The notes below the pieces were generated by a model that searched no databases, had not been told where the DNA came from, and saw only the letters and a program-made list of their open reading frames with translations. Of a stretch of DNA of 64,000 nucleotides, positions 1 through 62,296 are shown in pieces (the first letter of the stretch is position 1; each line of letters opens with the position of its first letter). The position numbers were made by a program, and so were the translations under genes. The DNA is taken from assembly GCF_055900595.2 (NCBI RefSeq), contig NZ_CM148325.1. One strand, given 5' to 3'.

Positions 1-519
1 TAATTCCCACAATAATTCGAAATCAGCCGTCGAGAGCGAGATTTCAGCATTAGCCAGAGTGACTACGCGGTTGATGGGATCGATAGTCAACGTGCCGAAA
101 TGCAGGGCTTTGTAGGGAGTCAGCGTCGTTTCCTGAAGACCTTTGCTCAGTGTGGCTTGCTCATTCTGACGTAAATGCAAACGTAAACGCGCTAACAAAA
201 CAGCAGGGGGCGTCGTTTTGAGAATATAGTCGCAGGCACCCATTTCTAGTGCCAGGATGTGGTTCATATCGCTATCGAGAGAGGTTAGAAGAACAATCGG
301 TCCGGACCACTTTGCGCGTAAATCACGACAAATGGTCATGCCGTCCTTGCCTGGTAGCATGATATCGAGTAACACCAAATCCGGATTTTCTCGCAGAATA
401 GTTTCTTCGGCCTGGTCGCCGCGCGGCTCTACGGTAACCTGCATATCATGTTTTGCCAGGTACGCGGCAATCAGTGAACCGACTTCCGCATCATCTTCCA
501 CAAATACGATAGTGTTCAT
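1..519 (-). CDS. rstA: Response regulator RstA (partial; C-terminal end lies beyond window start)
   Basis: Minus-strand ORF with ATG at 517-519; translation MNTIVFVEDDAEVGSLIAAYLAKHDMQVTV... is a CheY-like receiver domain matching E. coli RstA; followed by ydgC-folM as in E. coli. Confidence 0.9.
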   Translation of the reverse strand, partial: MNTIVFVEDDAEVGSLIAAYLAKHDMQVTVEPRGDQAEETILRENPDLVLLDIMLPGKDGMTICRDLRAKWSGPIVLLTSLDSDMNHILALEMGACDYILKTTPPAVLLARLRLHLRQNEQATLSKGLQETTLTPYKALHFGTLTIDPINRVVTLANAEISLSTADFELLWEL

Positions 520-23518: not shown

Positions 23519-25945
23519 TTATATTTTGTCGATCTCGACCAGATTAGTGTGCTGCGGGTTTCCCTTCGCCAGTGGTGAAGGGCGCAGAGTGGTTAGCGTA
23601 TTCACACAGCCGCCGTGGTCGATTTTATCGCCAGACATATCGGCTTCGTGCCAGGCTCCCTGGCCCATAGCGCTAACTCCAGGGAGAATGCGTGGTGTCA
23701 CTTTGGCTGGTAGCCGAACTTCGCCACGATGGTTAAACACTCGCACCATATCGCCGTTGGCAATCCCACGTTTCTGTGCATCTATAGGGTTGATCCACAC
23801 TTCCTGACGGCAGGCTGCCTTCAGGACATCAATGTTGCCGTAGGTCGAGTGAGTACGGGATTTGTAATGGAAACCAAACAGTTGTAGCGGGAAGGTACTA
23901 CGTTCAGGGGCGTCCCAGCCTTCAAAGGTTGAGGCATAAACCGGCAGTGGGCTTATCACTTCATCTTTTTCCAGTTCCCAGGTACGGGCAATTTCCGCCA
24001 GCTTGCTGGAATAAATTTCAATCTTACCGGAAGGCGTTTTAAGTGGATTTGCCTCGGGGTCGTCACGAAATGCTTTGTAGGCGACAAAATGACCATTGGG
24101 ATCCTTACGCTTATAGATACCCATTTTTTTCAGTTCGTCGTAAGACGGTAACGCCGGATCTTTGGCAAGCATTTTGGCGTACAGATGTTGTAACCATTGT
24201 TCCTGAGTGCGGCCTTCAGTGAATTTTTGATAGACGTCAGGGCCAAGACGTTTCGCGACTTCACTTAGGATCCAGTAAATCGGTTTGCGTTCGAATTTTT
24301 CGCTGGTGACTGGCTGGAGGAAAATGAGATATCCCATGTTACCGGCGTAATCGTTAGGAATAATATCTTCCTGCTCAACGGTCATCAGGTCTGGCAGCAG
24401 AATGTCGGCATATTTCGCCGATGAGGTCATAAAGTTTTCGATGACCACAATCATTTCGCATTTCGATTCGTCCTGCAGAATTTCATGCGTTTTGTTAATG
24501 TCAGAATGCTGATTAACCAGGGTATTTCCCGCGTAGTTCCAGATGAACTTAATGGGCACATCCAGTTTATCTTTGCCGCGGACGCCGTCGCGGATTGCCG
24601 TCATTTGCGGGCCATGATCGATAGCATCCGTCCAGCTGAAGCAGGAGATTGATGTTTTGACCGGATTATCCAGCACCGGCAGGCGTTCTATGGTAATGGT
24701 ATAGGTGGATTCACGCGCGCCACTATTTCCGCCGCTGATGCCGACATTGCCCGTCAGAATAGGCAACATCGCAATAGCGCGTGCAGTCAGCTCGCCGTTT
24801 GCCTGGCGTTGCGGTCCCCAGCCCTGGCAGATATAAGCGGGTTTTGCTGTGCCAATTTCACGCGCCAGTTTGATGATACGGTCCACCGGGATACCGGTAA
24901 TTTGCGAAGCCCACTGCGGCGTTTTCGCTGTTTTGTCGTCTCCTTCACCAAGAATATAGGCTTTATAGTGACCATTTTTTGGTGCATCTGCGGGTAAGGT
25001 TTTTTCGTCATAGCCGACGCAGTATTTATCGAGAAAAGGTTGATCAACGAGATTTTCGTTAATCAATACCCAGGCAATGCCCGCTACCAGCGCGGCATCA
25101 GTGCCCGGGCGAATAGGAATCCACTCGTCTTCACGACCGGCAGCCGTATCGGTATATCGCGGATCGATAACAATCATTTTTGCGTTCGATTTCTCGCGCG
25201 CTTTTTCAAGAAGATAAGTGATGCCACCACCGCTCATGCGGGTTTCTGCCGGGTTGTTACCAAACATCACGACCAGCTTGCTGTTTTCAATATCCGTGGT
25301 GCTGTTGCCATCATTACTGCCGTAGGTGTAGGGCATGGCACAGGAAATTTGCGCAGTGCTGTAGGAGCCATACTGGTTGAGTGAACCGCCGTAGCAGTTC
25401 ATCAGGCGTTTGACCGCCGAGGCCGATGGCGAAGAGCGGGTCATATTGCCGCCAACGATCCCCGAAGAGTACTGAATATATACAGCCTCATTGCCATATT
25501 GTTCGACGGTTTTCTTCAGGCTACTGGCGATAGTATCCAGGGCTTCATCCCAGCTAATCCGTTCGAATTTGCCTTCGCCACGTTTGCCCACGCGTTTCAT
25601 TGGGTAATTCAAGCGATCGGGATGATTAATACGTCGACGAATGGACCGACCGCGCAAACAGGCGCGTACTTGATGATTGCCATACTCGTCGTTGCCGGTG
25701 TTGTCAGTTTCCACCCAGGTGACTTCATTATCTTTAACATGTAGACGAAGTGCACAGCGGCTACCACAGTTGACGGAACAGGCACCCCAGACCACTTTTT
25801 CGCTGGCCTGTTGTACCGCTGCCGCTGCACTGCGCAGGGTGAACGGTAAAGAAAAACCGCCTGCAGCCAGCGCCAGAGAACCTATCGCGGTAGATTTAAC
25901 GAGTGTTCTGCGGCTGATGCCCACCATTTGTTCATTTTTGGACAT
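23519..25945 (-). CDS. ynfE: Molybdopterin oxidoreductase catalytic subunit YnfE (DmsA paralog)
   Basis: 808-aa ORF MSKNEQMVGISRRTLVKSTAIGSLALAAGG... Tat signal; tandem paralog of ynfF. Confidence 0.9.
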   Translation of the reverse strand: MSKNEQMVGISRRTLVKSTAIGSLALAAGGFSLPFTLRSAAAAVQQASEKVVWGACSVNCGSRCALRLHVKDNEVTWVETDNTGNDEYGNHQVRACLRGRSIRRRINHPDRLNYPMKRVGKRGEGKFERISWDEALDTIASSLKKTVEQYGNEAVYIQYSSGIVGGNMTRSSPSASAVKRLMNCYGGSLNQYGSYSTAQISCAMPYTYGSNDGNSTTDIENSKLVVMFGNNPAETRMSGGGITYLLEKAREKSNAKMIVIDPRYTDTAAGREDEWIPIRPGTDAALVAGIAWVLINENLVDQPFLDKYCVGYDEKTLPADAPKNGHYKAYILGEGDDKTAKTPQWASQITGIPVDRIIKLAREIGTAKPAYICQGWGPQRQANGELTARAIAMLPILTGNVGISGGNSGARESTYTITIERLPVLDNPVKTSISCFSWTDAIDHGPQMTAIRDGVRGKDKLDVPIKFIWNYAGNTLVNQHSDINKTHEILQDESKCEMIVVIENFMTSSAKYADILLPDLMTVEQEDIIPNDYAGNMGYLIFLQPVTSEKFERKPIYWILSEVAKRLGPDVYQKFTEGRTQEQWLQHLYAKMLAKDPALPSYDELKKMGIYKRKDPNGHFVAYKAFRDDPEANPLKTPSGKIEIYSSKLAEIARTWELEKDEVISPLPVYASTFEGWDAPERSTFPLQLFGFHYKSRTHSTYGNIDVLKAACRQEVWINPIDAQKRGIANGDMVRVFNHRGEVRLPAKVTPRILPGVSAMGQGAWHEADMSGDKIDHGGCVNTLTTLRPSPLAKGNPQHTNLVEIDKI

Positions 25946-52977: not shown

Positions 52978-53539
52978 TCACCATAACTGCTAACCATTCT
53001 GACCATTTCACAAGTGACAGAGTCAATATCGTATTCTGTCACTGTCAGGCTAATACAGCAATGCAATTCAACTACAGCAATGCCTCGTATTTAGGTGAAT
53101 TTACAATATCGTCCAGTTCGGATGCCGGCTGCATTTCTGAAGATAAGGCATTTCGGTTCTCGTATTTTCCCCTCATGCTCGTCAGTCCTGCGCGTAGTAA
53201 GAAACAGGACACTCACACTAATTTGTGTGGGCATGCTGTGATGTCCTTCTGAATTATCCCCATGCCATTATGTAAAGCTCTGTTACAGATGCTCGTCACG
53301 GTTGTCAGGCTGTCGGGTCCTCCCAGTGGGGGGCCCTGCCACGGGGCGGGAGCGTCGCGGAAAAAGGCTAGTTTTTGCATTTCCATGGCGGCGGCAGCAT
53401 GTTTGGTAATTTATTGATAATTAAAAGTTATTTCCCTTTTCACCTGTACAATATTTTTTTCTTCCTGTCATTAGACCAGTTTGCAATTAATTGAAATATA
53501 TAAATAAACCTGATTTTCACCTGCCAGATGGAGTTGCTT

Positions 53540-54067
53540 ATGTCAAATGTGAGCGGGATCGGTGATGCTTATTACTGGAGTGTTTTTAAAATCGCCGAGG
53601 CCTTTGGGCTTCACCGGGACACAGTAAAAAAACGGCTCCTCGCGGCCAACACTCCTGTGGCTGCGACTGTCAGGGGGAACCCCGTTTACGCCCTGCAGCA
53701 TGTCGGGCCCGCCCTGTTTAGTGTGAAGCATGAGGCAGCAGACTCTGTTCATGATCCATCCCGTATGGAGCCGAAAGAGAGAAAGGACTGGTACCAGTCT
53801 GAAAATGAAAGGATCAAGCTGGAAAAGGAGCAGCGAAAACTCATCCCAGTTGATGAAGTAGTCATCGTCTATTCGTCCATGAGAAAGGCTGTCGTCCAGG
53901 TTCTGGAGACAATTCCGGATGTTCTTGAACGCGATTGCGCTCTGACTCCTCAGGCCGTCGGCGTTGTACAGCAGGCCATTGATGACCTGCGATACACTCT
54001 TCAGGAAAAATCCTACGAGGCTTGTGCTGCTGAATTAATTCCTGATGAGGAAGGAGAGAGTCTCTAG
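53540..54067 (+). CDS. Terminase small subunit (putative)
   Basis: ORF MSNVSGIGDAYYWSVFKIAEAFGLHRDTVKKRLLAANTPVAATVRGNPVYALQHV... with N-terminal HTH-like segment; directly upstream of large terminase; RBS GGAG. Confidence 0.65.
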   Translation: MSNVSGIGDAYYWSVFKIAEAFGLHRDTVKKRLLAANTPVAATVRGNPVYALQHVGPALFSVKHEAADSVHDPSRMEPKERKDWYQSENERIKLEKEQRKLIPVDEVVIVYSSMRKAVVQVLETIPDVLERDCALTPQAVGVVQQAIDDLRYTLQEKSYEACAAELIPDEEGESL

Positions 54068-54075
54068 GAGGAATA

Positions 54076-56175
54076 ATGGGTTTTTCATCAGCCCGAAATT
54101 TGGGAAGGGACATATCGGCAGGATTTTCCCCACCACGTCGCATGCCGATTTCGGAGGCTGTTAAAAAATTCATGCGTGTTCCCAAGGGGGCTGGTAACTC
54201 GGTGCCATGGGATCCTGAACTGACACCCTACATCATTGAGCCCATGAACTGCCTGGCATCGCGTGAATACGATGCGGTGATTTTTGTTGGTCCTGCGCGA
54301 ACAGGGAAGACCATTGGTCTGATCGATGGATGGATTGTCTATACCATCGTTTGCGATCCTTCGGACATGCTCGTTGTGCAGATGACCGAAGATAAGGCCC
54401 GCGAGCATTCTAAAAAGCGCCTCGACAGAACGTTCAGAAGCAGTGCGGCGGTAAAGAAAAGAATGAGTCCACGTCGTAACGACAATAATGTCCATGATAA
54501 GACGTTCAGGGATGGCTCGTTCCTTAAAATTGGTTGGCCCTCGGTCAACATTATGTCGTCGTCGGATTACCGGTTTGTCGCCTTAACCGATTACGACCGT
54601 TTTCCGGAGAATATCGACAGCGAGGGTGATGGTTTCTCCCTGGCCTCAAAACGTACCACCACATTTATGTCCGCCGGGATGACTCTGGTGGAGAGCTCGC
54701 CGGGACGTGACATCTGCGACAGCAAATGGCGACGTAAGTCGCCTCATGAAGCGCCACCGACGACTGGTATTCTTTCCCTTTACAATCGTGGTGACCGCCG
54801 CCGCTGGTACTGGCCATGTCCGCACTGCGGTGAATATTTTCAGCCAGCTATGGATGCCATGACCGGCTACCGTAATGAACCGGATCCCTTTAAAGCCAGT
54901 GAGGCGGCGTATCTACTTTGCCCGCACTGCAGCGGCATTATCACTGCGGAGAAAAAGCGTGAGCTCAATAGTGCAGGAGTCTGGTTGCGTGAAGGTCAGG
55001 TCATTGATCGTAACGGCAACGTTTCCGGTGAACCGCGCCGCTCCCGTATCGCCAGTTTCTGGATGGAAGGGCCAGCTGCTGCGTATCAGACCTGGGCGCA
55101 ACTGGTTTACAAATTACTGACTGCAGAACAGGAGTATGAAGCGACAGGAAGCGAAGAAACACTCAGGGCGGTTATCAACACCGACTGGGGATTGCCTTAT
55201 CTTCCTCGTGCCAGCATGGAGCAACGAAAAAGTGAACTGCTTGAGCAGCGGGCAGAGCCAGTTCCTTCCTGCAGTGTGCCGGATGGCGTTAATTTCCTTG
55301 TGGCGACAGTGGATGTGCAGGCGGGACGTCATCGCCGTTTTGTGGTTCAGGTAACTGGCTATGGCAGTCGTGGCGAACGCTGGATTATTGATCGTTACAA
55401 TATCACGCAGTCATTGCGCAGTGACTGCGACGGGGAGAGCCAGCGAATTGATCCGGCCAGCTATCCGGAAGACTGGGATGTCCTGCTGACGGATGTTTTT
55501 CATAAAAGCTGGCCGCTGGCCTCCGATCCTTCTCAACAAATGCGACTGATGGCAATGGCGGTGGACTCCGGCGGTGAAGACGGGGTCACTGATAATGCCT
55601 ATAAATTCTGGCGTCGTTGCCGTCGTGATGGCCTTGGTAAACGTATTTACCTGTTTAAGGGCGACAGCATCCGGCGCGCAAAACTGATCACCCGTACATT
55701 CCCTGATAACACCGGACGAACGGGCCGACGGGCGCAGGCCGCAGGTGATGTGCCGCTCTGGCTTCTTCAGACGGATGCACTGAAAGACCGGGTGAATAAC
55801 GCGTTATGGCGTGACTCGCCAGGTCCCGGCTATGTGCATTTCCCTGACTGGCTGGGGAGCTGGTTTTACGACGAACTGACGTATGAAGAGCGGAGCAGTG
55901 ACGGGAAATGGAGTAAGCCGGGTCGCGGTGCCAACGAAGCTTTTGACCTGATGGTGTATGCCGAGGCTCTGGTCATTCTGCATGGATACGAAAAGATCCG
56001 CTGGCCGGATGCACCGGAGTGGGCGAGCCGGGAAACCTGGCTGGAGTGTGTCCCGGACAGTACCGAACCGTCACCCTCACCGGAACCGGTATCCACGCCT
56101 GTTAAAAAACAAAAACGGAAGAAAACAGTAACTGACGATGTTAACCCCTGGCTGACTTCCGGAGGATGGTTATGA
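54076..56175 (+). CDS. Terminase large subunit (lambda gpA-like)
   Basis: 699-aa ORF with Walker A (VGPARTGKT) and C-terminal nuclease region; RBS AGGAGG. Confidence 0.9.
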   Translation: MGFSSARNLGRDISAGFSPPRRMPISEAVKKFMRVPKGAGNSVPWDPELTPYIIEPMNCLASREYDAVIFVGPARTGKTIGLIDGWIVYTIVCDPSDMLVVQMTEDKAREHSKKRLDRTFRSSAAVKKRMSPRRNDNNVHDKTFRDGSFLKIGWPSVNIMSSSDYRFVALTDYDRFPENIDSEGDGFSLASKRTTTFMSAGMTLVESSPGRDICDSKWRRKSPHEAPPTTGILSLYNRGDRRRWYWPCPHCGEYFQPAMDAMTGYRNEPDPFKASEAAYLLCPHCSGIITAEKKRELNSAGVWLREGQVIDRNGNVSGEPRRSRIASFWMEGPAAAYQTWAQLVYKLLTAEQEYEATGSEETLRAVINTDWGLPYLPRASMEQRKSELLEQRAEPVPSCSVPDGVNFLVATVDVQAGRHRRFVVQVTGYGSRGERWIIDRYNITQSLRSDCDGESQRIDPASYPEDWDVLLTDVFHKSWPLASDPSQQMRLMAMAVDSGGEDGVTDNAYKFWRRCRRDGLGKRIYLFKGDSIRRAKLITRTFPDNTGRTGRRAQAAGDVPLWLLQTDALKDRVNNALWRDSPGPGYVHFPDWLGSWFYDELTYEERSSDGKWSKPGRGANEAFDLMVYAEALVILHGYEKIRWPDAPEWASRETWLECVPDSTEPSPSPEPVSTPVKKQKRKKTVTDDVNPWLTSGGWL

Positions 56176-56384
56176 ACCAGAATGATATCGAAGCCATGAT
56201 TCAGCGTTATACGGAAGCTGAAATGGCGGTGCTGGACGGAAAATCCGTCACCTTTAATGGTCAGCAGATGACCATGGAAAACTTATCTGAGATCCGGCAG
56301 GGACGGCAGGAGTGGGAGCGCCGCCTTGCGGCTCTGATTACACGACGACGGGGGCATCCCGGGTACCGGCTGGCGAGGTTCTGA
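56172..56384 (+). CDS. Head-tail joining protein (lambda gpW-like)
   Basis: 70-aa ORF MNQNDIEAMIQRYTEAEMAVLDGKSVTFNGQQMTMENLSEIRQGRQEWERRLAALITRRRG...; start overlaps terminase stop (ATGA). Confidence 0.6.
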   Translation: MNQNDIEAMIQRYTEAEMAVLDGKSVTFNGQQMTMENLSEIRQGRQEWERRLAALITRRRGHPGYRLARF

Positions 56385-57892
56385 TGGCAATTCTTGATGA
56401 TGTGATTGGCGTTTTTTCACCAGGATGGAAAGCGGCAAGGCTGCGTTCCCGGGCGGTGATCCAGGCTTATGAGGCCGTAAAAACGACGCGGACACACAAA
56501 GCCCGGCGGGAAAACCGAACTGCCGACCAGTTAAGCCTCTACGGGGCCGTGTCGTTACGTGAGCAGGCCCGTTACCTTGATAACAACCACGATCTGGTCA
56601 TTGGTGTATTTGACAAGCTGGAAGAACGGGTGGTGGGGAAAAACGGGATTATTGTCGAGCCACATCCGGTATTACGCAATGGGGCCATTGCCCGTGATCT
56701 GGCAGCGGAGATACGCACCCGATGGAGTGAATGGTCTGTCAGTCCGGAAGTTACCGGGCAGTTTACCCGTCCGATGCTGGAACGTCTGATGCTGCGTACC
56801 TGGCTGCGCGATGGTGAGGTGTTTGCCCAGATGGTTTCCGGGCGCATAAACAGCCTGACGCCTTCTGCCGGTGTTCATTTCTGGCTGGAGGCACTCGAGC
56901 CAGACTTTATTCCCATGACCAGTGATGAGAGCAACAGGCTGAATCAGGGCGTGTTTGTTGATGACTGGGGGCGTCCCGAAAAATATCTGGTGTATAAAAG
57001 TCGTCCTGTATCCGGACGGCAGATGGAAACCAAAGAAGTGGATGCAGAGCGAATGCTGCATCTTAAATTTGTTCGCCGTCTGCACCAGATGCGCGGGACG
57101 TCTTTATTGTCCGGTGTGCTGATCCGCCTCAGTGCCCTGAAAGAATATGAAGATTCTGAGCTGACTGCAGCAAGGATCGCTGCTGCTCTGGGGATGTACA
57201 TCCGCAAAGGCGACGGACAGAGCTATGAAACGGATGGTAATGACAGCAAGGAGAATGAACGCGAGCTTACCATTCAGCCAGGCATTATTTACGACGATCT
57301 GAAACCCGGCGAAGAAATCGGAATGGTGAAGTCGGATCGCCCCAATCCTAACCTTGAAACTTTTCGTAATGGTCAGTTGCGTGCCGTGGCGGCGGGCAGT
57401 CGTCTGAGTTTTTCCAGTACAGCGCGCAACTATAACGGCACTTACAGCGCCCAGCGTCAGGAGCTGGTTGAATCCACTGATGGCTACCTGATCCTGCAGG
57501 ACTGGTTTATTGGTGCCGTCACCCGCCCGATGTATCGTGCCTGGCTGAAACAGGCTGTGGCATCCGGTGTTATCAGGCTACCCCGCGATCTTGACCGTTC
57601 TTCACTGTATACCGCGGTGTATTCCGGACCGGTGATGCCGTGGATTGACCCTGTTAAGGAGGCTGAGGCCTGGAAAATTCAGATTCGTGGTGGAGCGGCG
57701 ACAGAATCAGACTGGGTACGTGCAGGTGGTCGTAATCCGGATGATGTCAAACGTCGGCGCAAGGCAGAAATTGATGAAAACCGCAAGCTGGATCTGGTAT
57801 TTGATACCGATCCGGCCAGTGATAAAGGAGGCAGCAGTGCCGCAACGAAACGACAGGAGCCGCAGCACACCGACGACCAGTCCGAAGAATAA
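56384..57892 (+). CDS. Portal protein (lambda gpB-like)
   Basis: 502-aa ORF MAILDDVIGVFSPGWKAARLRSRAVIQAYEAVKT...; start overlaps gpW-like stop. Confidence 0.85.
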   Translation: MAILDDVIGVFSPGWKAARLRSRAVIQAYEAVKTTRTHKARRENRTADQLSLYGAVSLREQARYLDNNHDLVIGVFDKLEERVVGKNGIIVEPHPVLRNGAIARDLAAEIRTRWSEWSVSPEVTGQFTRPMLERLMLRTWLRDGEVFAQMVSGRINSLTPSAGVHFWLEALEPDFIPMTSDESNRLNQGVFVDDWGRPEKYLVYKSRPVSGRQMETKEVDAERMLHLKFVRRLHQMRGTSLLSGVLIRLSALKEYEDSELTAARIAAALGMYIRKGDGQSYETDGNDSKENERELTIQPGIIYDDLKPGEEIGMVKSDRPNPNLETFRNGQLRAVAAGSRLSFSSTARNYNGTYSAQRQELVESTDGYLILQDWFIGAVTRPMYRAWLKQAVASGVIRLPRDLDRSSLYTAVYSGPVMPWIDPVKEAEAWKIQIRGGAATESDWVRAGGRNPDDVKRRRKAEIDENRKLDLVFDTDPASDKGGSSAATKRQEPQHTDDQSEE

Positions 57893-57905
57893 TTCCTGGT
57901 TCAGG

Positions 57906-59864
57906 ATGCAGGCTGGTCACCAGAGTGACGCGGATATTTATATTTATGACGAGATTGGTTTCTGGGGTGTTACAGCGAAGCAGTTTATCAGTGATCTGAA
58001 TGCACTGGGCGATATCACCCACATTAATCTCCATATCAATTCACCGGGTGGCGATGTCTTTGAAGGCATCGCCATTTTTAATGCGCTGAAAACACATGGT
58101 GCGTCCATTACCGTTTATGTCGACGGTGTGGCGGCGTCAATGGCGTCGGTCATTGCGATGGTGGGAAACCCGGTCATTATGCCGGAAAACACCTTCATGA
58201 TGATTCATAAACCATTTGGCTTTACGGGCGGTGATGCGGAGGACATGCGCACCTATGCCGACCTGCTCGATAAGGTTGAGGCGGTTCTGTTACCCGCTTA
58301 TGCACAGAAAACCGGGAAAACCACCGATGAAATTGCTGCCATGCTGGCGGATGAGACCTGGATGTCCGGTGCCGAATGTCTGGCACATGGATTTGCTGAT
58401 CAGGTGACGCCAGCCGTTAAGGCAATGGCATGTATTCAGTCAAAACGTACAGAGGAATTTAAAAAGATGCCGGAATCCATTCGAAACATGATTACTCCGC
58501 CACGCAACAGTGCTCCACGCGTACAGGATGATGAACCTGCAGCCTCCCGGACGCCAGTGCAGGCAGCAGCACCCGTGGTGGATGAAAACAGTATCCGTGC
58601 GCAGGTACTGGCAGAGCAAAAAGCGCGTGTAAACGGTATTAATGATCTGTTTGCCATGTTTGGCGGGCGTTATCAGACGCTGCAGGCTCAGTGTCTTGCC
58701 GATCCTGAGTGTTCGCTGGAGCAGGCCCGCGAAAAGCTGTTGAACGAGATGGGGCGCGAGTCCACGCCATCCAATAAAAATACACCGGCTCATATTTATG
58801 CTGGTAACGGTAATTTTGTGGGGGACGGGATCCGCCAGGCGCTGATGGCGCGTGCCGGATTTGAAAAAACCGAACGTGATAATGTCTACAACGGGATGAC
58901 CCTGCGTGAATATGCCCGTATGTCACTGACTGAACGGGGTATTGGGGTTTCCGGTTATAACCCGATGCAGATGGTCGGTGCGGCGTTCACCCACAGTACG
59001 TCTGACTTCGGTAATATTCTGCTGGATGTTGCGAACAAAGCCATTCTGCAGGGCTGGGAAGATGCTCCTGAAACCTATGAACAATGGACGCGGAAAGGTC
59101 AGTTGTCTGATTTTAAAATTGCCCATCGTGTGGGTATGGGGGGCTTCAGTGCTCTGCGTCAGGTGCGTGAAGGGGCGGAATATAAATACGTCACCACCGG
59201 AGATAAACAGGCCACTATTGCACTGGCGACCTATGGCGAGCTGTTCAGTATCACCCGTCAGGCCATTATCAATGATGATCTGAATATGCTGACCGATGTC
59301 CCGATGAAACTGGGCCGTGCGGCGAAATCCACTATTGCCGATCTGGTTTATGCCATTCTGACGTCTAACCCGAAAATCTCCACAGATAATGTAAGTCTGT
59401 TCGATAAAGCGAAACATGCAAACGTACTGGAGAGCGCTGCAATGGACGTGGCATCGCTGGATAAAGCCCGCCAGTTGATGCGCGTTCAGAAAGAGGGGGA
59501 GCGTCATCTGAATATTCGTCCTGCGTTCGTACTGGTACCGACGGCGATGGAGTCTGTTGCTAACCAGGTCATTCGCTCCTCAAGTGTCAAGGGGGCTGAC
59601 ATTAACGCCGGTATTATTAACCCGGTGAAAGATTTTGCGACCGTTATTGCAGAGCCTCGTCTTGATGATAACAGCCAGACCACCTTCTACCTGGCTGCGT
59701 CAAAAGGCTCCGATACGATTGAAGTGGCTTATCTCAACGGTGTGGATACGCCATATATTGATCAGATGGAGGGCTTCAGTGTGGATGGCGTGACAACGAA
59801 AGTGCGTATTGACGCCGGTGTCGCGCCAGTTGATCACCGCGGTCTGGTGAAATGTACGGCGTAA
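57906..59864 (+). CDS. Fused prohead protease (ClpP/S49-like) - scaffold - major capsid protein
   Basis: 652-aa ORF; N-terminal ClpP-like segment (...IYIYDEIGFWG...INSPGGDVFEGIAIFNALKTH...MMIHKPF...) and C-terminal capsid-like domain. Confidence 0.8.
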   Translation: MQAGHQSDADIYIYDEIGFWGVTAKQFISDLNALGDITHINLHINSPGGDVFEGIAIFNALKTHGASITVYVDGVAASMASVIAMVGNPVIMPENTFMMIHKPFGFTGGDAEDMRTYADLLDKVEAVLLPAYAQKTGKTTDEIAAMLADETWMSGAECLAHGFADQVTPAVKAMACIQSKRTEEFKKMPESIRNMITPPRNSAPRVQDDEPAASRTPVQAAAPVVDENSIRAQVLAEQKARVNGINDLFAMFGGRYQTLQAQCLADPECSLEQAREKLLNEMGRESTPSNKNTPAHIYAGNGNFVGDGIRQALMARAGFEKTERDNVYNGMTLREYARMSLTERGIGVSGYNPMQMVGAAFTHSTSDFGNILLDVANKAILQGWEDAPETYEQWTRKGQLSDFKIAHRVGMGGFSALRQVREGAEYKYVTTGDKQATIALATYGELFSITRQAIINDDLNMLTDVPMKLGRAAKSTIADLVYAILTSNPKISTDNVSLFDKAKHANVLESAAMDVASLDKARQLMRVQKEGERHLNIRPAFVLVPTAMESVANQVIRSSSVKGADINAGIINPVKDFATVIAEPRLDDNSQTTFYLAASKGSDTIEVAYLNGVDTPYIDQMEGFSVDGVTTKVRIDAGVAPVDHRGLVKCTA

Positions 59865-59885: not shown

Positions 59886-59908
59886 ATGGCCCGTAAGGGC
59901 TTTTTTTG
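59886..59908 (+). terminator. Hairpin plus T-run after capsid gene (partial terminator candidate)
   Basis: GGCCC-gtaa-GGGC followed by TTTTTTT. Confidence 0.5.
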
Positions 59909-59950
59909 TACCTGAAATCAGCCCCTGAACGGGGCTGTGCGGAGACAGTT

Positions 59951-60274
59951 ATGGCAAAGAATTTTGTAGAAGAAGGAAAAACGGTGGCGATTGTTGCCAG
60001 TGCAGCCATCAGCAGCGGAGAGCTGGTGCAGGTGGGTGATGTTTTTGCGGTGGCGCTGACCGATATTCCACAGGGTGAAACAGGCGACGGCATGACCGAA
60101 GGTGTGTTTATGCTGCCTAAGCTGAAAACGGATGACATGAAAACGGGTAAGAAGGTTTATCTGAAGTCCGGAAAAGTTCAGCTGACTAACAGCGGCTCTG
60201 ATCCGCTGGTCGGGGTTGTCTGGGCAGATGCCGGAACCAGTGCAGAAGAAGTGCCGGTAAAACTCAATGTCTGA
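59951..60274 (+). CDS. Small head protein (head completion/decoration candidate)
   Basis: 108-aa ORF MAKNFVEEGKTVAIVASAAISSGELVQVGDVFAVALTDIPQGETGDGMTEG...; RBS GGAGA; position after capsid gene. Confidence 0.5.
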   Translation: MAKNFVEEGKTVAIVASAAISSGELVQVGDVFAVALTDIPQGETGDGMTEGVFMLPKLKTDDMKTGKKVYLKSGKVQLTNSGSDPLVGVVWADAGTSAEEVPVKLNV

Positions 60275-60542
60275 TCCCTTTTCCCGGCTGGCAGCGCGTA
60301 TGGATGCGATCACGGTCAGAAAGATGGGAAAGACAGCCTCGATTAATGATGTCGATATGACTGTGATCCCGGGAGAAACACTGGCAGAGCTGAATGCTCT
60401 GTCCGGACCTGCGGTCTCTCTGGTGGTGTTTTCTTCGGGATACCGCCCACGGCGCGGGGATCGCGTTGTTTATGACGGACAACAATGGACGGTCACACGG
60501 CATGAACGCTTTAACGGTAAGCCAATGATCTTTATTGAGTAA
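60267..60542 (+). CDS. Head-tail connector protein (lambda gpFII-like)
   Basis: 91-aa ORF MSDPFSRLAARMDAITVRKMGKTASINDVDMTVIPGETLAELN...RRGDRVVYDGQQWTV... Confidence 0.55.
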   Translation: MSDPFSRLAARMDAITVRKMGKTASINDVDMTVIPGETLAELNALSGPAVSLVVFSSGYRPRRGDRVVYDGQQWTVTRHERFNGKPMIFIE

Positions 60543-60553
60543 AGAGGTGTGGG

Positions 60554-61144
60554 ATGAAGGGGCTTGAGAATGCCATCCGCAATCTGAACAGCCTTGATAC
60601 CCGTATGGTGCCACAGGCCAGCGCATGGGCGATAAACCGTGTGGCACAGAAAGCGGTCTCGGTTGCCACCCGGCAGGTTGCCGGGAATACCGTTGCGGGA
60701 GATAACCAGGTGAAAGGGATCCCCCTGAAACTGGTACGTCAGCGTGTCCGGGTGTTTAAAGCCAGTCCGTCAGGAAAAATGACGGCCAGGATCCGCGTTA
60801 ACCGGGGCAATCTGCCCGCCATCAAACTGAACACAACACGGCGGCGTGCTGGTGAAGGACTGAGAGTGGGAAAATACTTTTTCCGGGGGGCATTTGTTCA
60901 GCAACTGGCGAATGGCCGCTGGCATGTTCTGAGGCGTCTTCCTGAAGCGCGTTTTGCAACAGGGCATGACCATCAGGGCAGGCCAAGAAAAAATCGTCTT
61001 CCTGTGGAGGTAGTGAAAATCCCGCTGTCCGGACCGCTGACACAGGCATTTGAAGATGCCCGCGACCACATCATTGCTGCGGAAATGCCGAAACAGCTGG
61101 GGTATGCACTGAAACAACAACTGAGGTTATGGCTGACCCGATGA
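60554..61144 (+). CDS. Tail completion protein (lambda gpZ-like)
   Basis: 196-aa ORF MKGLENAIRNLNSLDTRMVPQASAWAINRVAQKAVSVATRQVAGN... Confidence 0.65.
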   Translation: MKGLENAIRNLNSLDTRMVPQASAWAINRVAQKAVSVATRQVAGNTVAGDNQVKGIPLKLVRQRVRVFKASPSGKMTARIRVNRGNLPAIKLNTTRRRAGEGLRVGKYFFRGAFVQQLANGRWHVLRRLPEARFATGHDHQGRPRKNRLPVEVVKIPLSGPLTQAFEDARDHIIAAEMPKQLGYALKQQLRLWLTR

Positions 61145-61542
61145 ACCGACATACACAAATCCGCCAGGTCGTACTGGCACGCCTTCGGGAACAGTGTGGA
61201 GACAGCGCCACGTTTTTTGACGGGCTTCCGGCATTTATTGATGCGCAGGAACTGCCTGCCGTGGCGGTGTGGCTGAGTGATGCTCAGTACACCGGAAAAA
61301 TGACGGATGAAGATGACTGGCAGGCTGTTCTGCATATTGCCGTCTTCATCCGGGCACAGGCACCGGATTCAGAGCTGGATATGTGGATGGAGAGCACCAT
61401 TTTCCCGGCCCTGAATGATGTACCGGCACTTTCCGGACTCATCGACACCCTGAACCCACTCGGTTTTAACTATCAACGTGATAATGAGATGGCCACCTGG
61501 GCGATGGCGGAAATCACGTACCAGATCACGTACACGAATTAA
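61141..61542 (+). CDS. Tail terminator protein (lambda gpU-like)
   Basis: ORF MNRHTQIRQVVLARLREQCGDSATFFDGLPAFIDAQELPAVAVWLSDAQYTGK... aligns with lambda gpU (…ATFFDGRPAVFDEADFPAVAVYLTGAEYTGE…) from memory; start overlaps gpZ stop. Confidence 0.8.
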   Translation: MNRHTQIRQVVLARLREQCGDSATFFDGLPAFIDAQELPAVAVWLSDAQYTGKMTDEDDWQAVLHIAVFIRAQAPDSELDMWMESTIFPALNDVPALSGLIDTLNPLGFNYQRDNEMATWAMAEITYQITYTN

Positions 61543-61552
61543 GGAGGTGGTA

Positions 61553-62296
61553 ATGACCACACCAAATCCACTGGCAAAGACGAAAGGTGCGGGGACGACG
61601 TTCTGGATGTATACCGGCAACGGCGATGCGTTTGCGAACCCTTTGTCGGACACTGACTGGCTGCGTCTTGCGATGGTGAAGGATCTGCAACCTGGCGAAA
61701 TGACCGCTGATGCAGAAGATGACACTTATCTCGATGATGAAGATGCAGACTGGAAAACGACAACCCAGGGGCAGAAATCCGTTGGTGATACTTCGGCGAC
61801 GCTGGCCTGGCGTCCGGGTGACAGCGGGCAGAAAAAACTGGTTCAGTTGTTCGACTCCGGTGAAGTCTGCGCGTTTCGTATCAAATATCCCAACGGCACT
61901 GTTGATGTTTTCCGTGGCTGGCTGAGCTCACTGGGTAAAACCATTGCCTCAAAAGACGTGATGACCCGCACTGTGAAAATCAGCGGTGTGGGGCGTCCGT
62001 ATCTGGCAGAGGAAGGCACTGAAACCGTGAGCGTTACCGGGCTGACAGTATCACCGGCGTCTGCCAGTGTAAAAGTGGGAGCAACCACCACGCTGACCTT
62101 TACAGTAAAACCTGACGGAGCCAGTGACAAAGCGATCAGTGTGCATTCGTCAGATCCACAGACTGCCACGGTTACCCTGAACGGACTTGTGGCCACGGTA
62201 AAAGGCGTGAAGCAGGGCAGTGTCAGCATTGTGGGCATGACCGCTGACGGGAATTTTGTGGCTGTGACTGCGGTGACTGTCAGCGCAGCAGGTTAA
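61553..62296 (+). CDS. Major tail protein (lambda gpV-like) with C-terminal Ig-like domain
   Basis: ORF MTTPNPLAKTKGAGTTFWMYTGNGDAFANPLSDTDWLRLAMVKDL...YLDDEDADW...NGTVDVFRGW...; RBS AAGGAGG. Confidence 0.85.
   Translation: MTTPNPLAKTKGAGTTFWMYTGNGDAFANPLSDTDWLRLAMVKDLQPGEMTADAEDDTYLDDEDADWKTTTQGQKSVGDTSATLAWRPGDSGQKKLVQLFDSGEVCAFRIKYPNGTVDVFRGWLSSLGKTIASKDVMTRTVKISGVGRPYLAEEGTETVSVTGLTVSPASASVKVGATTTLTFTVKPDGASDKAISVHSSDPQTATVTLNGLVATVKGVKQGSVSIVGMTADGNFVAVTAVTVSAAG

Follow-up and report, generated by a model that had tools for sequence, protein, structure and literature searches.

Fused head genes in known phages

Several tailed phages are known or proposed to encode prohead protease, scaffold and capsid functions in a single gene. 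According to passages in PMC12315714 and PMC8538268, which cite Effantin et al. (2010, Virology 402:355), the prohead protease and coat genes of phage Gifsy-2 are fused, and the heads of phage mEp213 are similar. The Gifsy-2 cement protein is described as a trimer sitting on the 3-fold axes of the shell. Experimental capsid data (cryo-electron microscopy, T=7 lattice, trimeric decoration) belong to Gifsy-2 only, whereas the gene described here is known from its sequence. For Pseudomonas phage MD8 and MD8-like phages, a computational study proposed that protease, scaffold and capsid reside in one 693-aa gene, gp5, with a ClpP-like protease and a capsid part nearest to Mu gpT (PMC8508860). MD8 infects a different host genus, and an internal start is not discussed in PMC8508860; Pseudomonas homologs are approximately 56% identical to the protein described below.

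In phage lambda, the same functional set (protease, scaffold, cement, and HK97-fold capsid protein) follows a lambda-family portal gene but is divided among four genes, C, Nu3, D, and E, compared with one gene plus a cement gene at the present locus. The lambda protease is of the S49 type and not ClpP-like, and its cement protein belongs to the gpD family, whereas that found here belongs to Phage_cement_2. The start of Nu3 is nested in frame within C, an arrangement that sets the ratio of protease to scaffold. In phage HK97 (gp4/gp5), the scaffold is built into the N terminus of the capsid protein and is removed by a co-assembled protease; the HK97 fold is common to both systems, but the HK97 protease is of a different family and is encoded separately. 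HK97 lacks a cement protein and forms a covalent chainmail. The capsid domain found here belongs to the Mu-gpT sequence family, as in phage Mu (gpI/gpZ plus gpT) and in the capsid of Pseudomonas phage JBD30 (PDB 8rkc, 8rkx), although in Mu-like phages the capsid protein, of about 305 aa, has its own gene and another protein serves as protease/scaffold.

A common prophage head gene of E. coli

The window, that is, the whole 64,000-nucleotide stretch of DNA analyzed, contains one open reading frame (ORF) in which a ClpP-like prohead protease, a scaffold-like middle region, and a major capsid protein follow each other (Table 1). The sequence-only reading had recognized this arrangement as a known module, which agrees with the curated family models, with identity and synteny to Gifsy-2, and with the literature. 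The protein scores 985.7 bits (cutoff, 475) against NF045540, [quoted passage not shown] over residues 32 to 674 and profile positions 2 to 651 of 652, and it also matches PHROG 133. The product of the "tripartite capsid gene" of the Salmonella phage Gifsy-2 (STM1033/STM1034.3n) has the same one-ORF architecture and is 69% identical over 668 residues; it comes from a different host and represents a different allele, and its record annotates a longer N terminus (696 aa). Synteny with Gifsy-2 extends over the small and large terminase, the W-like gene, the portal, the fusion gene, the 107-aa cement gene, an STM1035-like connector, and Z, U, and V.

Much closer copies exist. The phages mEp460, cdtI, Ayreon, Tritos, and phi458 carry the gene with 98 to 99.8% DNA identity, and the RefSeq protein WP_001136590.1 is 100% identical to the encoded product. 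The fusion gene is present in 2,124 of 5,426 complete Escherichia coli genomes (approximately 39%), so that the module, first taken to be less common, is not so in this species. Given this distribution, the gene is already known; it is a curated head gene that is very common among E. coli prophages. We put at roughly 90% the probability that it represents the capsid gene in a lambdoid prophage head module of the Gifsy-2/mEp460/cdtI type and works by the general protease-scaffold-capsid mechanism.

The names given to the gene in its relatives conflict, ranging over protease, scaffold, Nu3, and major head protein. The database names ClpP, Nu3, "head-tail preconnector protease C," and "major head protein" all designate one tripartite gene.

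Table 1. Features of the fusion gene and its immediate surroundings (positions in the window)
Feature	Position	Strand	Basis
Portal gene (lambda family), upstream	56384..57892	+	Phage_portal_2 E 9.5e-82; RefSeq portal
Shine-Dalgarno sequence AAGGAGG, full-length product	57825..57831	+	Sequence
Full-length CDS, 675 aa, 73.5 kDa: ClpP-like prohead protease/scaffold-like region/major capsid protein	57837..59864	+	NF045540, PHROG 133, RefSeq WP_001136590.1, Trp21/Phe22
ClpP-fold protease domain, residues ~22-191	57900..58409	+	PF00574, ClpP structure alignments, Foldseek
Predicted catalytic residues Ser101, His124, Asp188	58137-58139, 58206-58208, 58398-58400	+	ClpP alignments, conservation
Candidate internal Shine-Dalgarno sequence GAGGA in the codons of Glu206-Glu207, 10 nt before ATG 58467	58452..58456	+	Codon conservation
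Putative nested CDS from Met211, 465 aa, 50.7 kDa: scaffold-like region and capsid without protease	58467..59864	+	Conservation of Met211 and Shine-Dalgarno sequence
Disordered, indel-rich linker, residues 224-245	58506..58571	+	pLDDT <50; lowest conservation and most numerous gaps in alignment
Helical scaffold-like (delta-domain-like) region, residues ~250-374	58584..58958	+	AlphaFold helices, profile alignment to lambda C
HK97-fold major capsid protein domain, residues ~375-675, Mu-gpT/Phage_capsid_4 type	58959..59861	+	PF25209, PF10124, PDB profiles, Foldseek
Intrinsic-terminator-like hairpin and T run, 24 nt 3' of the stop codon	59888..59908	+	Sequence; terminator annotation in phage Ayreon
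Capsid cement/decoration protein gene, 107 aa, downstream, same head module	59951..60274	+	Phage_cement_2 E 1.5e-20

Reading frame and start codon

Reading of the sequence shows an uninterrupted plus-strand frame that is open from position 57645 and ends at the stop codon at 59862 to 59864. No stop codon occurs between 57837 and 59861, showing that the protease and capsid parts share one ORF. The single ORF of 652 aa that had been described from ATG 57906 is therefore correct in its length and its continuity, but its start is most likely misplaced. The best start is GTG 57837, located 69 nt upstream, and no other in-frame start codon lies between the two. The Shine-Dalgarno sequence AAGGAGG ends 5 nt before this GTG, and the RefSeq CDS WP_001136590.1 agrees with it in both coordinates and product name. 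In the homolog alignment, the conserved residues Trp21 and Phe22 are both encoded upstream of position 57906, and the methionine encoded there aligns with an internal isoleucine of most homologs. Residues 22 to 26 form a confident β-strand in the AlphaFold model. The annotated start differs among relatives, being GTG in RefSeq and ATG in phage Ayreon; in annotation, the start of the fusion gene should be placed at GTG 57837.

Head module and neighboring genes

The fusion gene begins in a different frame inside the portal gene and shares its last 56 nt. A programmed frameshift joining the two genes was considered and rejected: the 1,159-aa portal-protease-capsid proteins found in databases have their junctions at five places within a 250-nt stretch in which both frames are open, and such variation points to random indels or assembly errors. 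Accidental chimeras of this kind would fit a reading of the long ORF itself as an artifact or decayed gene, in which the protease and capsid genes of a defective prophage would have run together after loss of a stop codon, a frameshift, or a sequencing error. However, the same 675-aa ORF recurs with 100% identity in many independent complete genomes, its RefSeq copies sharing one product name, and the gene is carried by the plaque-forming phages Ayreon, mEp460, cdtI, and Tritos. More than 100 clusters (50% identity) contain full-length fusions, with the architecture conserved down to 34% identity, and Gifsy-2, which carries the fusion gene, makes capsids. The artifact reading is effectively refuted.

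Downstream of the gene, the hairpin GGCCC-GTAA-GGGCT (59888 to 59901) is followed by a T run, confirming the terminator hairpin proposed from the sequence. Of 87 related loci, 69 have a hairpin with a T run after the gene; its stem is conserved and its loop varies. An Rfam search gave no match. The cement protein gene also adjoins the fusion gene in all eight distant loci examined, and the context of a lambda-family portal upstream and a cement gene downstream is shared by the window, Gifsy-2, and the 8 distant homologs.

The large terminase is 72% identical to that of Gifsy-2 and 24% identical to that of lambda, the portal protein shares 64% identity with the Gifsy-2 portal and 21% with lambda B, and the cement protein is 59% identical to its Gifsy-2 homolog. 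Clear similarity to lambda is seen in the tail genes Z, U, V, G, and T (30 to 55%) and only in these. The "lambda-like tail and terminase" of the sequence-only reading thus holds for these tail genes, whereas the terminase is lambda-like at the family level only. Judged by the terminase and portal identities, the packaging-plus-head block as a whole is of the Gifsy-2 type.

Protease, scaffold-like, and capsid regions

The AlphaFold model of the fusion protein has a pLDDT of 88.8 and clear domain boundaries. A ClpP-like protease at the N terminus, as claimed from the sequence, is upheld by the domain searches: the Pfam family CLP_protease (PF00574) spans residues 31 to 191 with an E value of 2.8e-36, the score for the model NF045542 ("head maturation protease, ClpP-related") is 215.7 bits (cutoff, 120), and Foldseek superimposes the domain on ClpP structures with a TM score of about 0.8 and an RMSD of about 2 Å. 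Among 73 diverse homologs, the predicted catalytic residues Ser101 and His124 are invariant and Asp188 is retained in 57. The alternative label "S49-like" is not sustained, because the S49/SppA domain model reaches 22.3 bits, below its cutoff of 155; the protease is of the ClpP/S14 type.

The resemblance to ClpP in sequence and fold, together with the many database entries titled "ATP-dependent Clp protease proteolytic subunit," might suggest that the N-terminal domain is a cellular-type ClpP that partners with host ClpX or ClpA, or that the gene benefits the host, rather than a prohead protease. This is very improbable, since the best scores against the cellular ClpP equivalog and subfamily models are 55 to 80 bits, far under their cutoffs of 228 to 361 (TIGR00493, 59.6 versus 308.6), whereas the phage-specific NF045542 lies above its cutoff. 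The protease domain is moreover linked covalently to a capsid protein, its place is always between portal and cement genes, and a PADLOC search gave no match.

The capsid domain claimed for the C-terminal part is also supported. Pfam Phage_capsid_4 (PF25209) covers residues 375 to 672 (E, 1.1e-54), and the Mu-gpT family PF10124 matches as well (E, 4e-8). When the whole protein, as a query or as a profile, is compared with the PDB, matches are to ClpP only, whereas a profile of the C-terminal part alone retrieves the "Mu GpT domain" capsid proteins 8rkc and 8rkx (E, 1e-11). Likewise, Foldseek with the whole model is dominated by ClpP matches, and a separate model of residues 300 to 675 was needed to reveal the capsid fold, which then matches HK97 and encapsulins with a probability of 1.0.

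Between these domains, AlphaFold predicts helices at residues 250 to 273, 280 to 288, 294 to 307, 327 to 339, and 356 to 366. The "Ala/Gln-rich linker" of the sequence-only reading is weakly true: a 22-residue disordered stretch at 224 to 245 is rich in Pro, Ala, and Gln, but residues 193 to 374 as a whole contain 12% Ala and 5% Gln, against 12 to 13% Ala in the remainder of the protein. Compared alone with lambda Nu3, the profile of the scaffold region gives a weak match (E, 0.005; probability, 7%), and the alignment of the family profile to lambda C continues through the Nu3 part of C. A scaffold role for residues ~250 to 374 is inferred from position, helicity, and this weak Nu3 similarity.

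BLASTP searches against lambda C, Nu3, D, E, Nu1, W, and FII gave no match. Profile comparison of the family with lambda C aligned 260 columns (probability, 85%; E, 6e-6), a clan-level relationship that is the sole link to C, and hhalign detected no profile similarity to lambda E (probability, 0.05%). The lambda type, with a gpE-homologous capsid protein and a gpD-homologous cement protein, is thus not what is found at this locus.

Candidate internal translation start

The codons of residues 206 to 211 contain a candidate internal ribosome-binding site followed by an ATG, in the frame of the protease as in nested gene pairs of the C/Nu3 type. The codon of Glu206 is GAG in 65 of 65 sequences, compared with 17 to 65% GAG at 17 other conserved Glu columns, and the replacements seen at residues 206 and 207 (Q-E, K-E, K-D, and G-D) all retain the AGGA/GGAG core. 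Met211 is invariant across 81 distinct coding sequences, all 81 of which have a Shine-Dalgarno core before it; at 12 other conserved Met columns such a core is found in 0 to 18%, with a background of 6.7%. Gifsy-2 shares the methionine with an upstream GAGGAG ("VEEFEHMP"), as well as a similar terminator after the gene. The linkers of distant homologs are otherwise unalignable; in 7 of 7 cases, an ATG within the linker is preceded at a distance of 6 to 8 nt by GAGG or AAGGAGG, and most distant homologs retain a canonical Shine-Dalgarno sequence and ATG there. The predicted mRNA accessibility at the internal start is in the 94th percentile.

Other internal starts were considered and set aside. 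At the family's main Met column (Val229 in the present protein), the codon in the window is GTA and has no Shine-Dalgarno sequence, so that this position is not used here; in the clade of the window gene, the candidate internal start is Met211 rather than the Val229 column. At residue 137, an ATG or GTG occurs with a Shine-Dalgarno-like motif that is not conserved, and the motifs at residues 536 and 649 are not associated with conserved Met columns.

Because of this conserved internal ribosome-binding site and ATG, the gene, read at first as the source of a single polypeptide, probably makes two products. Use of Met211, which would yield a 465-aa scaffold-capsid protein beginning MPESIRN besides the 675-aa chain, has on this evidence a slightly better than even chance. 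That the internal start is both real and previously undescribed is less likely than its use alone. No published description of a nested start in protease-capsid fusions was found in the literature searched, in which Effantin et al. 2010 is represented through citing papers, and the annotations of RefSeq, Ayreon, and other named relatives list no nested CDS. The evidence for this second, internal start is the sole new point, the gene itself being ordinary and already named. The presence of a canonical Shine-Dalgarno sequence and ATG in the linkers of most distant homologs also suggests that a protease gene and a capsid gene may have become fused when the stop codon separating them was lost, the capsid gene retaining its start.

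Alternatively, the gene may encode a single-product polyprotein, in which only the 675-aa chain is made, every subunit carries a protease, and the Shine-Dalgarno-like motif and Met211 are unused or are conserved for reasons of the protein. Publications describe a fused gene and annotations give one CDS, as this would predict. The spacing between GAGGA and ATG in the clade of the window gene is 10 to 11 nt, compared with 6 to 8 nt in the distant homologs, and 10 to 11 nt is near the upper limit of function in E. coli. Pro212 is at least 90% conserved family-wide, and Met211-Pro212 lies within a peptide motif, so that conservation around Met211 may partly act at the protein level. By a rough estimate, 415 full-length inner parts would take up only about half the space in a T=7 procapsid, which makes a protease on every subunit physically possible. 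Against this reading stand the fixed G in the third position of the Glu206 codon, the preservation of the AGGA/GGAG core through every change at residues 206 and 207, the far higher frequency of the core before Met211 than at other conserved Met columns, and the canonical signal inside linkers that cannot otherwise be aligned. On these grounds a single product appears somewhat unlikely, and two products remain the preferred reading.

Proposed assembly pathway

By analogy with Gifsy-2, HK97, and lambda, the capsid domains would assemble together on the portal, forming a T=7 procapsid in which the N-terminal parts face inward. The tethered proteases would next digest the protease and scaffold parts, leaving a mature capsid protein of a predicted ~33 to 38 kDa; the maturation cleavage is predicted to fall somewhere between residues ~308 and 385. 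DNA packaging would then lead to expansion of the shell, which trimers of the downstream 107-aa decoration protein would cement. With the nested start in use, the shell would be built from a mixture of the full-length chain and the 50.7-kDa scaffold-capsid protein, the latter corresponding directly to HK97 gp5 including the delta domain. The protease would enter the procapsid covalently tethered to a subset of the capsid subunits, and the relative use of the two starts would determine its dose, much as the protease-to-scaffold ratio is set in lambda C/Nu3 and herpesvirus UL26/UL26.5.

The fusion gene as first noted matters little, having been correctly recognized and being curated and very common. 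If the internal start is true, it would explain how fused genes avoid placing a protease on each of ~415 subunits, and it would provide a mechanistic link to lambda C/Nu3, Mu I/Z, and herpesvirus UL26/UL26.5. A synonymous change of the Glu206 codon from GAG to GAA would then offer a simple handle on protease dosage in capsid maturation.

Reading frame and start codon

The fusion gene occupies a plus-strand frame that runs without interruption to the stop codon at 59862-59864. The sequence-only reading began it at ATG 57906, which indeed encodes the 652 aa that it reported. The start is, however, most likely GTG 57837 rather than this ATG. A consensus AAGGAGG (57825-57831) lies 5 nt upstream of the GTG, no other in-frame start codon occurs between 57837 and 57906, and GTG is the start annotated by RefSeq on a 100% identical copy; the annotation of phage Ayreon chose the ATG. 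Across 73 diverse homologs, the alignment shows conservation of Trp21/Phe22, which precede the Met at 57906; that Met is aligned mostly with Ile. Residues 22 to 26 form a confident strand of the protease domain in the AlphaFold model. Because GTG 57837 is the most likely start, the protein (675 aa, 73.5 kDa) is numbered from there.

The frame is also open for 192 nt upstream of the GTG, from 57645, and overlaps the 3' end of the portal gene (57645-57892), so that any 1-nt deletion there merges the two genes. About a dozen "portal-protease-capsid" proteins of 1158 to 1159 aa are present in public databases, among them P0005, P0007, P0009, P0011, and P0012. Programmed frameshifting from the portal into the fusion gene was rejected as their origin; because the junctions vary between entries, the 1159-aa proteins are attributed to random single-base deletions or assembly errors within the 250 nt over which the two frames overlap without a stop.

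Domain architecture of the fusion protein

Pfam identifies CLP_protease at residues 31 to 191 (E 2.8e-36), Phage_capsid_4 at residues 375 to 672 (E 1.1e-54), and a weaker Mu-like_gpT match. From end to end, the protein fits the curated NCBIfam model NF045540 ([quoted passage not shown]) at 985.7 bits, where the cut-off is 475. PHROG 133 also matches along its full length, and NF045542 ("head maturation protease, ClpP-related"), a domain model of NCBIfam, reaches 215.7 with a cut-off of 120. All cellular ClpP models and the S49/SppA model of NCBIfam score far below their own cut-offs, and a cellular ClpP identity was rejected on the scores of the ClpP models. A defence gene identity was rejected on a PADLOC search, which gave no hit.

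Mean pLDDT is 88.8 in the AlphaFold model, for which the 73-sequence alignment served as input. Its N-terminal domain superimposes on ClpP structures with a TM of about 0.8 and an rmsd of about 2 Å over about 165 residues. The ClpP-type catalytic Ser101 (first serine of GVAASMAS) and His124 (MMIHKP) are invariant in 73/73 homologs, and Asp188 is retained in 57 of them. Residues 300 to 675, modelled separately, match (probability 1.0) the proheads and heads of HK97 as well as encapsulins and the capsids of other phages, and a profile of the C-terminal part picks up two solved capsid proteins of the "Mu GpT domain" type, 8rkc and 8rkx (E 1e-11). Sequence and structure prediction show a single chain: an intact Ser/His protease of ClpP fold comes first, then a flexible linker and a helical region, and finally a capsid protein of HK97 fold. 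Domain searches support the protease N terminus, and the earlier claim therefore survives; of the "ClpP/S49-like" description, ClpP stands on Pfam, NF045542, and the fold, but S49 does not, given the SppA score. The proposed capsid domain agrees with the Phage_capsid_4 and HK97-fold matches. Apart from the start, which is corrected, the observation is confirmed; its interpretation is right at the core, with side statements corrected.

Features of the head region and of the fusion protein (window positions unless residues are stated)
Feature	Position	Strand	Remark
DUF1441 protein (probable small terminase)	53528-54067	+	
gpA-type large terminase	54076-56175	+	
Small W-like protein	56172-56384	+	
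Lambda-family portal	56384-57892	+	
Fusion gene	57837-59864	+	
Terminator hairpin	59888-59908		between capsid gene and cement gene
Phage_cement_2 decoration protein	59951-60274	+	
"Gifsy-2" family (PF13856) connector	60267-60542	+	
gpZ-like	60554-61144	+	
gpU-like	61141-61542	+	
gpV-like	61553-62296	+	
Compact N-terminal domain	residues 22-191		AlphaFold model
Two short helices			AlphaFold model, after N-terminal domain
Disordered stretch	residues 224-245		AlphaFold model
Helical region	residues about 250-366		AlphaFold model
C-terminal domain with long spine helix	spine helix, residues 482-510		AlphaFold model

Gene neighborhood

The gene order from the small terminase through V is identical in the Salmonella phage Gifsy-2, whose fusion protein and V product are each 69% identical to their window counterparts; the large terminase reaches 72%, the portal 64%, and the cement protein 59%. 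In contrast, similarity to lambda is clear only in the tail genes (Z, 40%; U, 53%; V, 55%; G, 30%; T, 38%), in line with the proposed lambda-like tail. The large terminase and portal are only 24% and 21% identical to those of lambda, and lambda C, Nu3, D, and E have no BLASTP match to the window proteins. The terminase is thus lambda-like at the family level but not closely similar. From these identities, the entire packaging-plus-head block is therefore of the Gifsy-2 type.

The product in the small-terminase position, named "DUF1441 family protein" by RefSeq, shares 40% identity with the small terminase of Gifsy-2 and has no BLASTP similarity to lambda Nu1. The 91-aa connector gene occupies the expected head-tail connector (FII-like) position and is annotated as a connector in Ayreon; its names are misleading in PGAP ("DNA breaking-rejoining protein") and for PF13856 ("ATP-binding sugar transporter from pro-phage"). 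In the identical RefSeq copy of the prophage, the stretch that separates the lysis genes from the terminase (L001 2581-4141, corresponding to about 51.2 to 53.4 kb of the window) holds the small cargo genes cspI, ymcF, ynfN, and the gnsB toxin-family gene.

Middle region and capsid maturation

The middle part had been described as an Ala/Gln-rich linker, which holds only loosely. Residues 193 to 374 contain 12% Ala and 5% Gln, with Ala no higher than in the remainder of the protein, but the disordered, indel-rich stretch of 22 residues that precedes the conserved helices is rich in Pro/Ala/Gln. In profile comparison, 260 columns of the family align to lambda gpC (probability 85%, E 6e-6), and this alignment continues through the Nu3 part of C; the scaffold region alone gives a weak signal against Nu3 (E 0.005, probability 7%). 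A scaffold (delta-domain-like) role can reasonably be inferred for the middle part from its position, helicity, and analogy. The profile alignments hint that the scaffold parts of the ClpP-like fusion family and of lambda S49 gpC may be homologous, whereas the capsid proteins are not detectably so. The first scaffold helices of the family (AE..R...I) visibly match Nu3 residues about 110 to 157 (AENSRIMGIL) when the 73-homolog alignment is set against lambda C (L003 4418-5734).

By a pathway inferred from Gifsy-2, HK97, and lambda, about 415 copies would build a T=7 procapsid on the portal, their N-terminal parts lying inside. The concentrated protease domains would then remove the protease and scaffold parts, the shell would expand on packaging, and trimers of the 107-aa decoration protein would cement the 3-fold sites. 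Because the alignment to solved capsid proteins of the Mu type begins at about residue 385 to 395, and a low-confidence loop lies at about residues 308 to 326 of the AlphaFold model, the mature capsid protein should be about 33 to 38 kDa.

Downstream hairpins

The reported terminator hairpin is present 24 nt past the stop codon as GGCCC-GTAA-GGGCT followed by a T run, and is also marked in the Ayreon annotation. Of 87 related loci (L005-L091), 69 have a comparable hairpin behind the gene, Gifsy-2 included; the L004 counterpart lies at 24590-24610. The stem GCCC/GGGC is conserved and the tetraloop varies (GTAA, TGAC, GAAA, ATAA, GGAA, and others); no Rfam family matches the region. The hairpin is presumably read through in the Q-antiterminated late operon, and it may mainly affect where transcripts end or how stable they are. 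Another strong hairpin, CAGCCCC-TGAAC-GGGGCTG (59919-59950), lacks a T run. The GGAG and ATG (59951) of the cement protein gene follow directly behind it, and it might influence the translation or mRNA stability of that gene. Compared with shuffled controls, the 86-nt intergenic region has the better fold (z -2.4).

Distribution and a candidate internal start

The fusion gene is 98 to 99.8% identical in DNA to those of phages mEp460, cdtI, Ayreon, Tritos, and phi458, about 78% identical to the Stx-phage and VT1-Sakai versions, and present in 2,124 of 5,426 complete E. coli genomes; the listed E. coli records carry the same PGAP name as NF045540. Full-length fusions form well over a hundred clusters in a 50%-identity library, down to about 34% identity. 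In 8/8 distant members whose contigs were examined, the gene lies between a portal and a Phage_cement_2 gene, and the portal is of the lambda family wherever its product had a Pfam entry. An assembly artefact or decayed gene was rejected on the identical copies, functional phages, and deep conservation. In the passage of a paper that cites Effantin et al. 2010, the prohead protease and coat genes of Gifsy-2 are fused and mEp213 heads are similar; the mEp213 protein is 73% identical to that of the window. Gifsy-2 is also described as having a trimeric cement protein at the 3-fold axes. The MD8 paper (PMC8508860) proposed one 693-aa gene for protease, scaffold, and capsid protein, and "major capsid and protease fusion protein" is a standard name among actinobacteriophage annotators. 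The curated model, the frequency in E. coli, and this literature therefore show that the fusion gene was already known, as the sequence-only reading held.

One column stands out as conserved in the linker, which otherwise cannot be aligned: it holds Met in 55 of 73 sequences, usually with Glu/Lys-Glu/Asp two to four residues upstream. In the DNA of seven distant homologs with this Met, GAGG, GAGGA(G), or AAGGAGG lies 6 to 8 nt before the ATG. The window codon at this column is GTA. Met211 (ATG 58467-58469, preceded by GAGGA at 58452-58456) is invariant in the window gene and its whole clade, which comprises 79 IMG/VR loci, Gifsy-2, and the window (81 distinct CDS, 53 to 99% identity). The Glu206 codon is GAG in 65/65 sequences, compared with 17 to 65% at 17 other conserved Glu columns. 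Where residues 206-207 are Q-E, K-E, K-D, or G-D, the DNA still reads CAGGAG, AAGGAG, AAGGAT, or AGGAGA, and the flanking synonymous sites are free to vary. An SD core lies 5 to 18 nt upstream of Met211 in 81/81 sequences, against 0 to 18% at 12 other conserved Met columns and a background of 6.7%. The codon, variant, and SD-core comparisons argue for selection on the nucleotides beyond the peptide alone, and the start site is predicted to be unusually unpaired (94th percentile). However, the SD-to-ATG spacing of 10 to 11 nt is longer than in the distant homologs, and Pro212 belongs to a peptide motif conserved family-wide; both are caveats to a start at Met211. On balance, a second product from Met211, a scaffold-capsid protein without protease (residues 211 to 675, 465 aa, 50.7 kDa), is predicted as somewhat probable. 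It would correspond to HK97 gp5 including the delta domain, by the same logic as in lambda C/Nu3; no annotation of the fusion gene that was checked includes a nested CDS.
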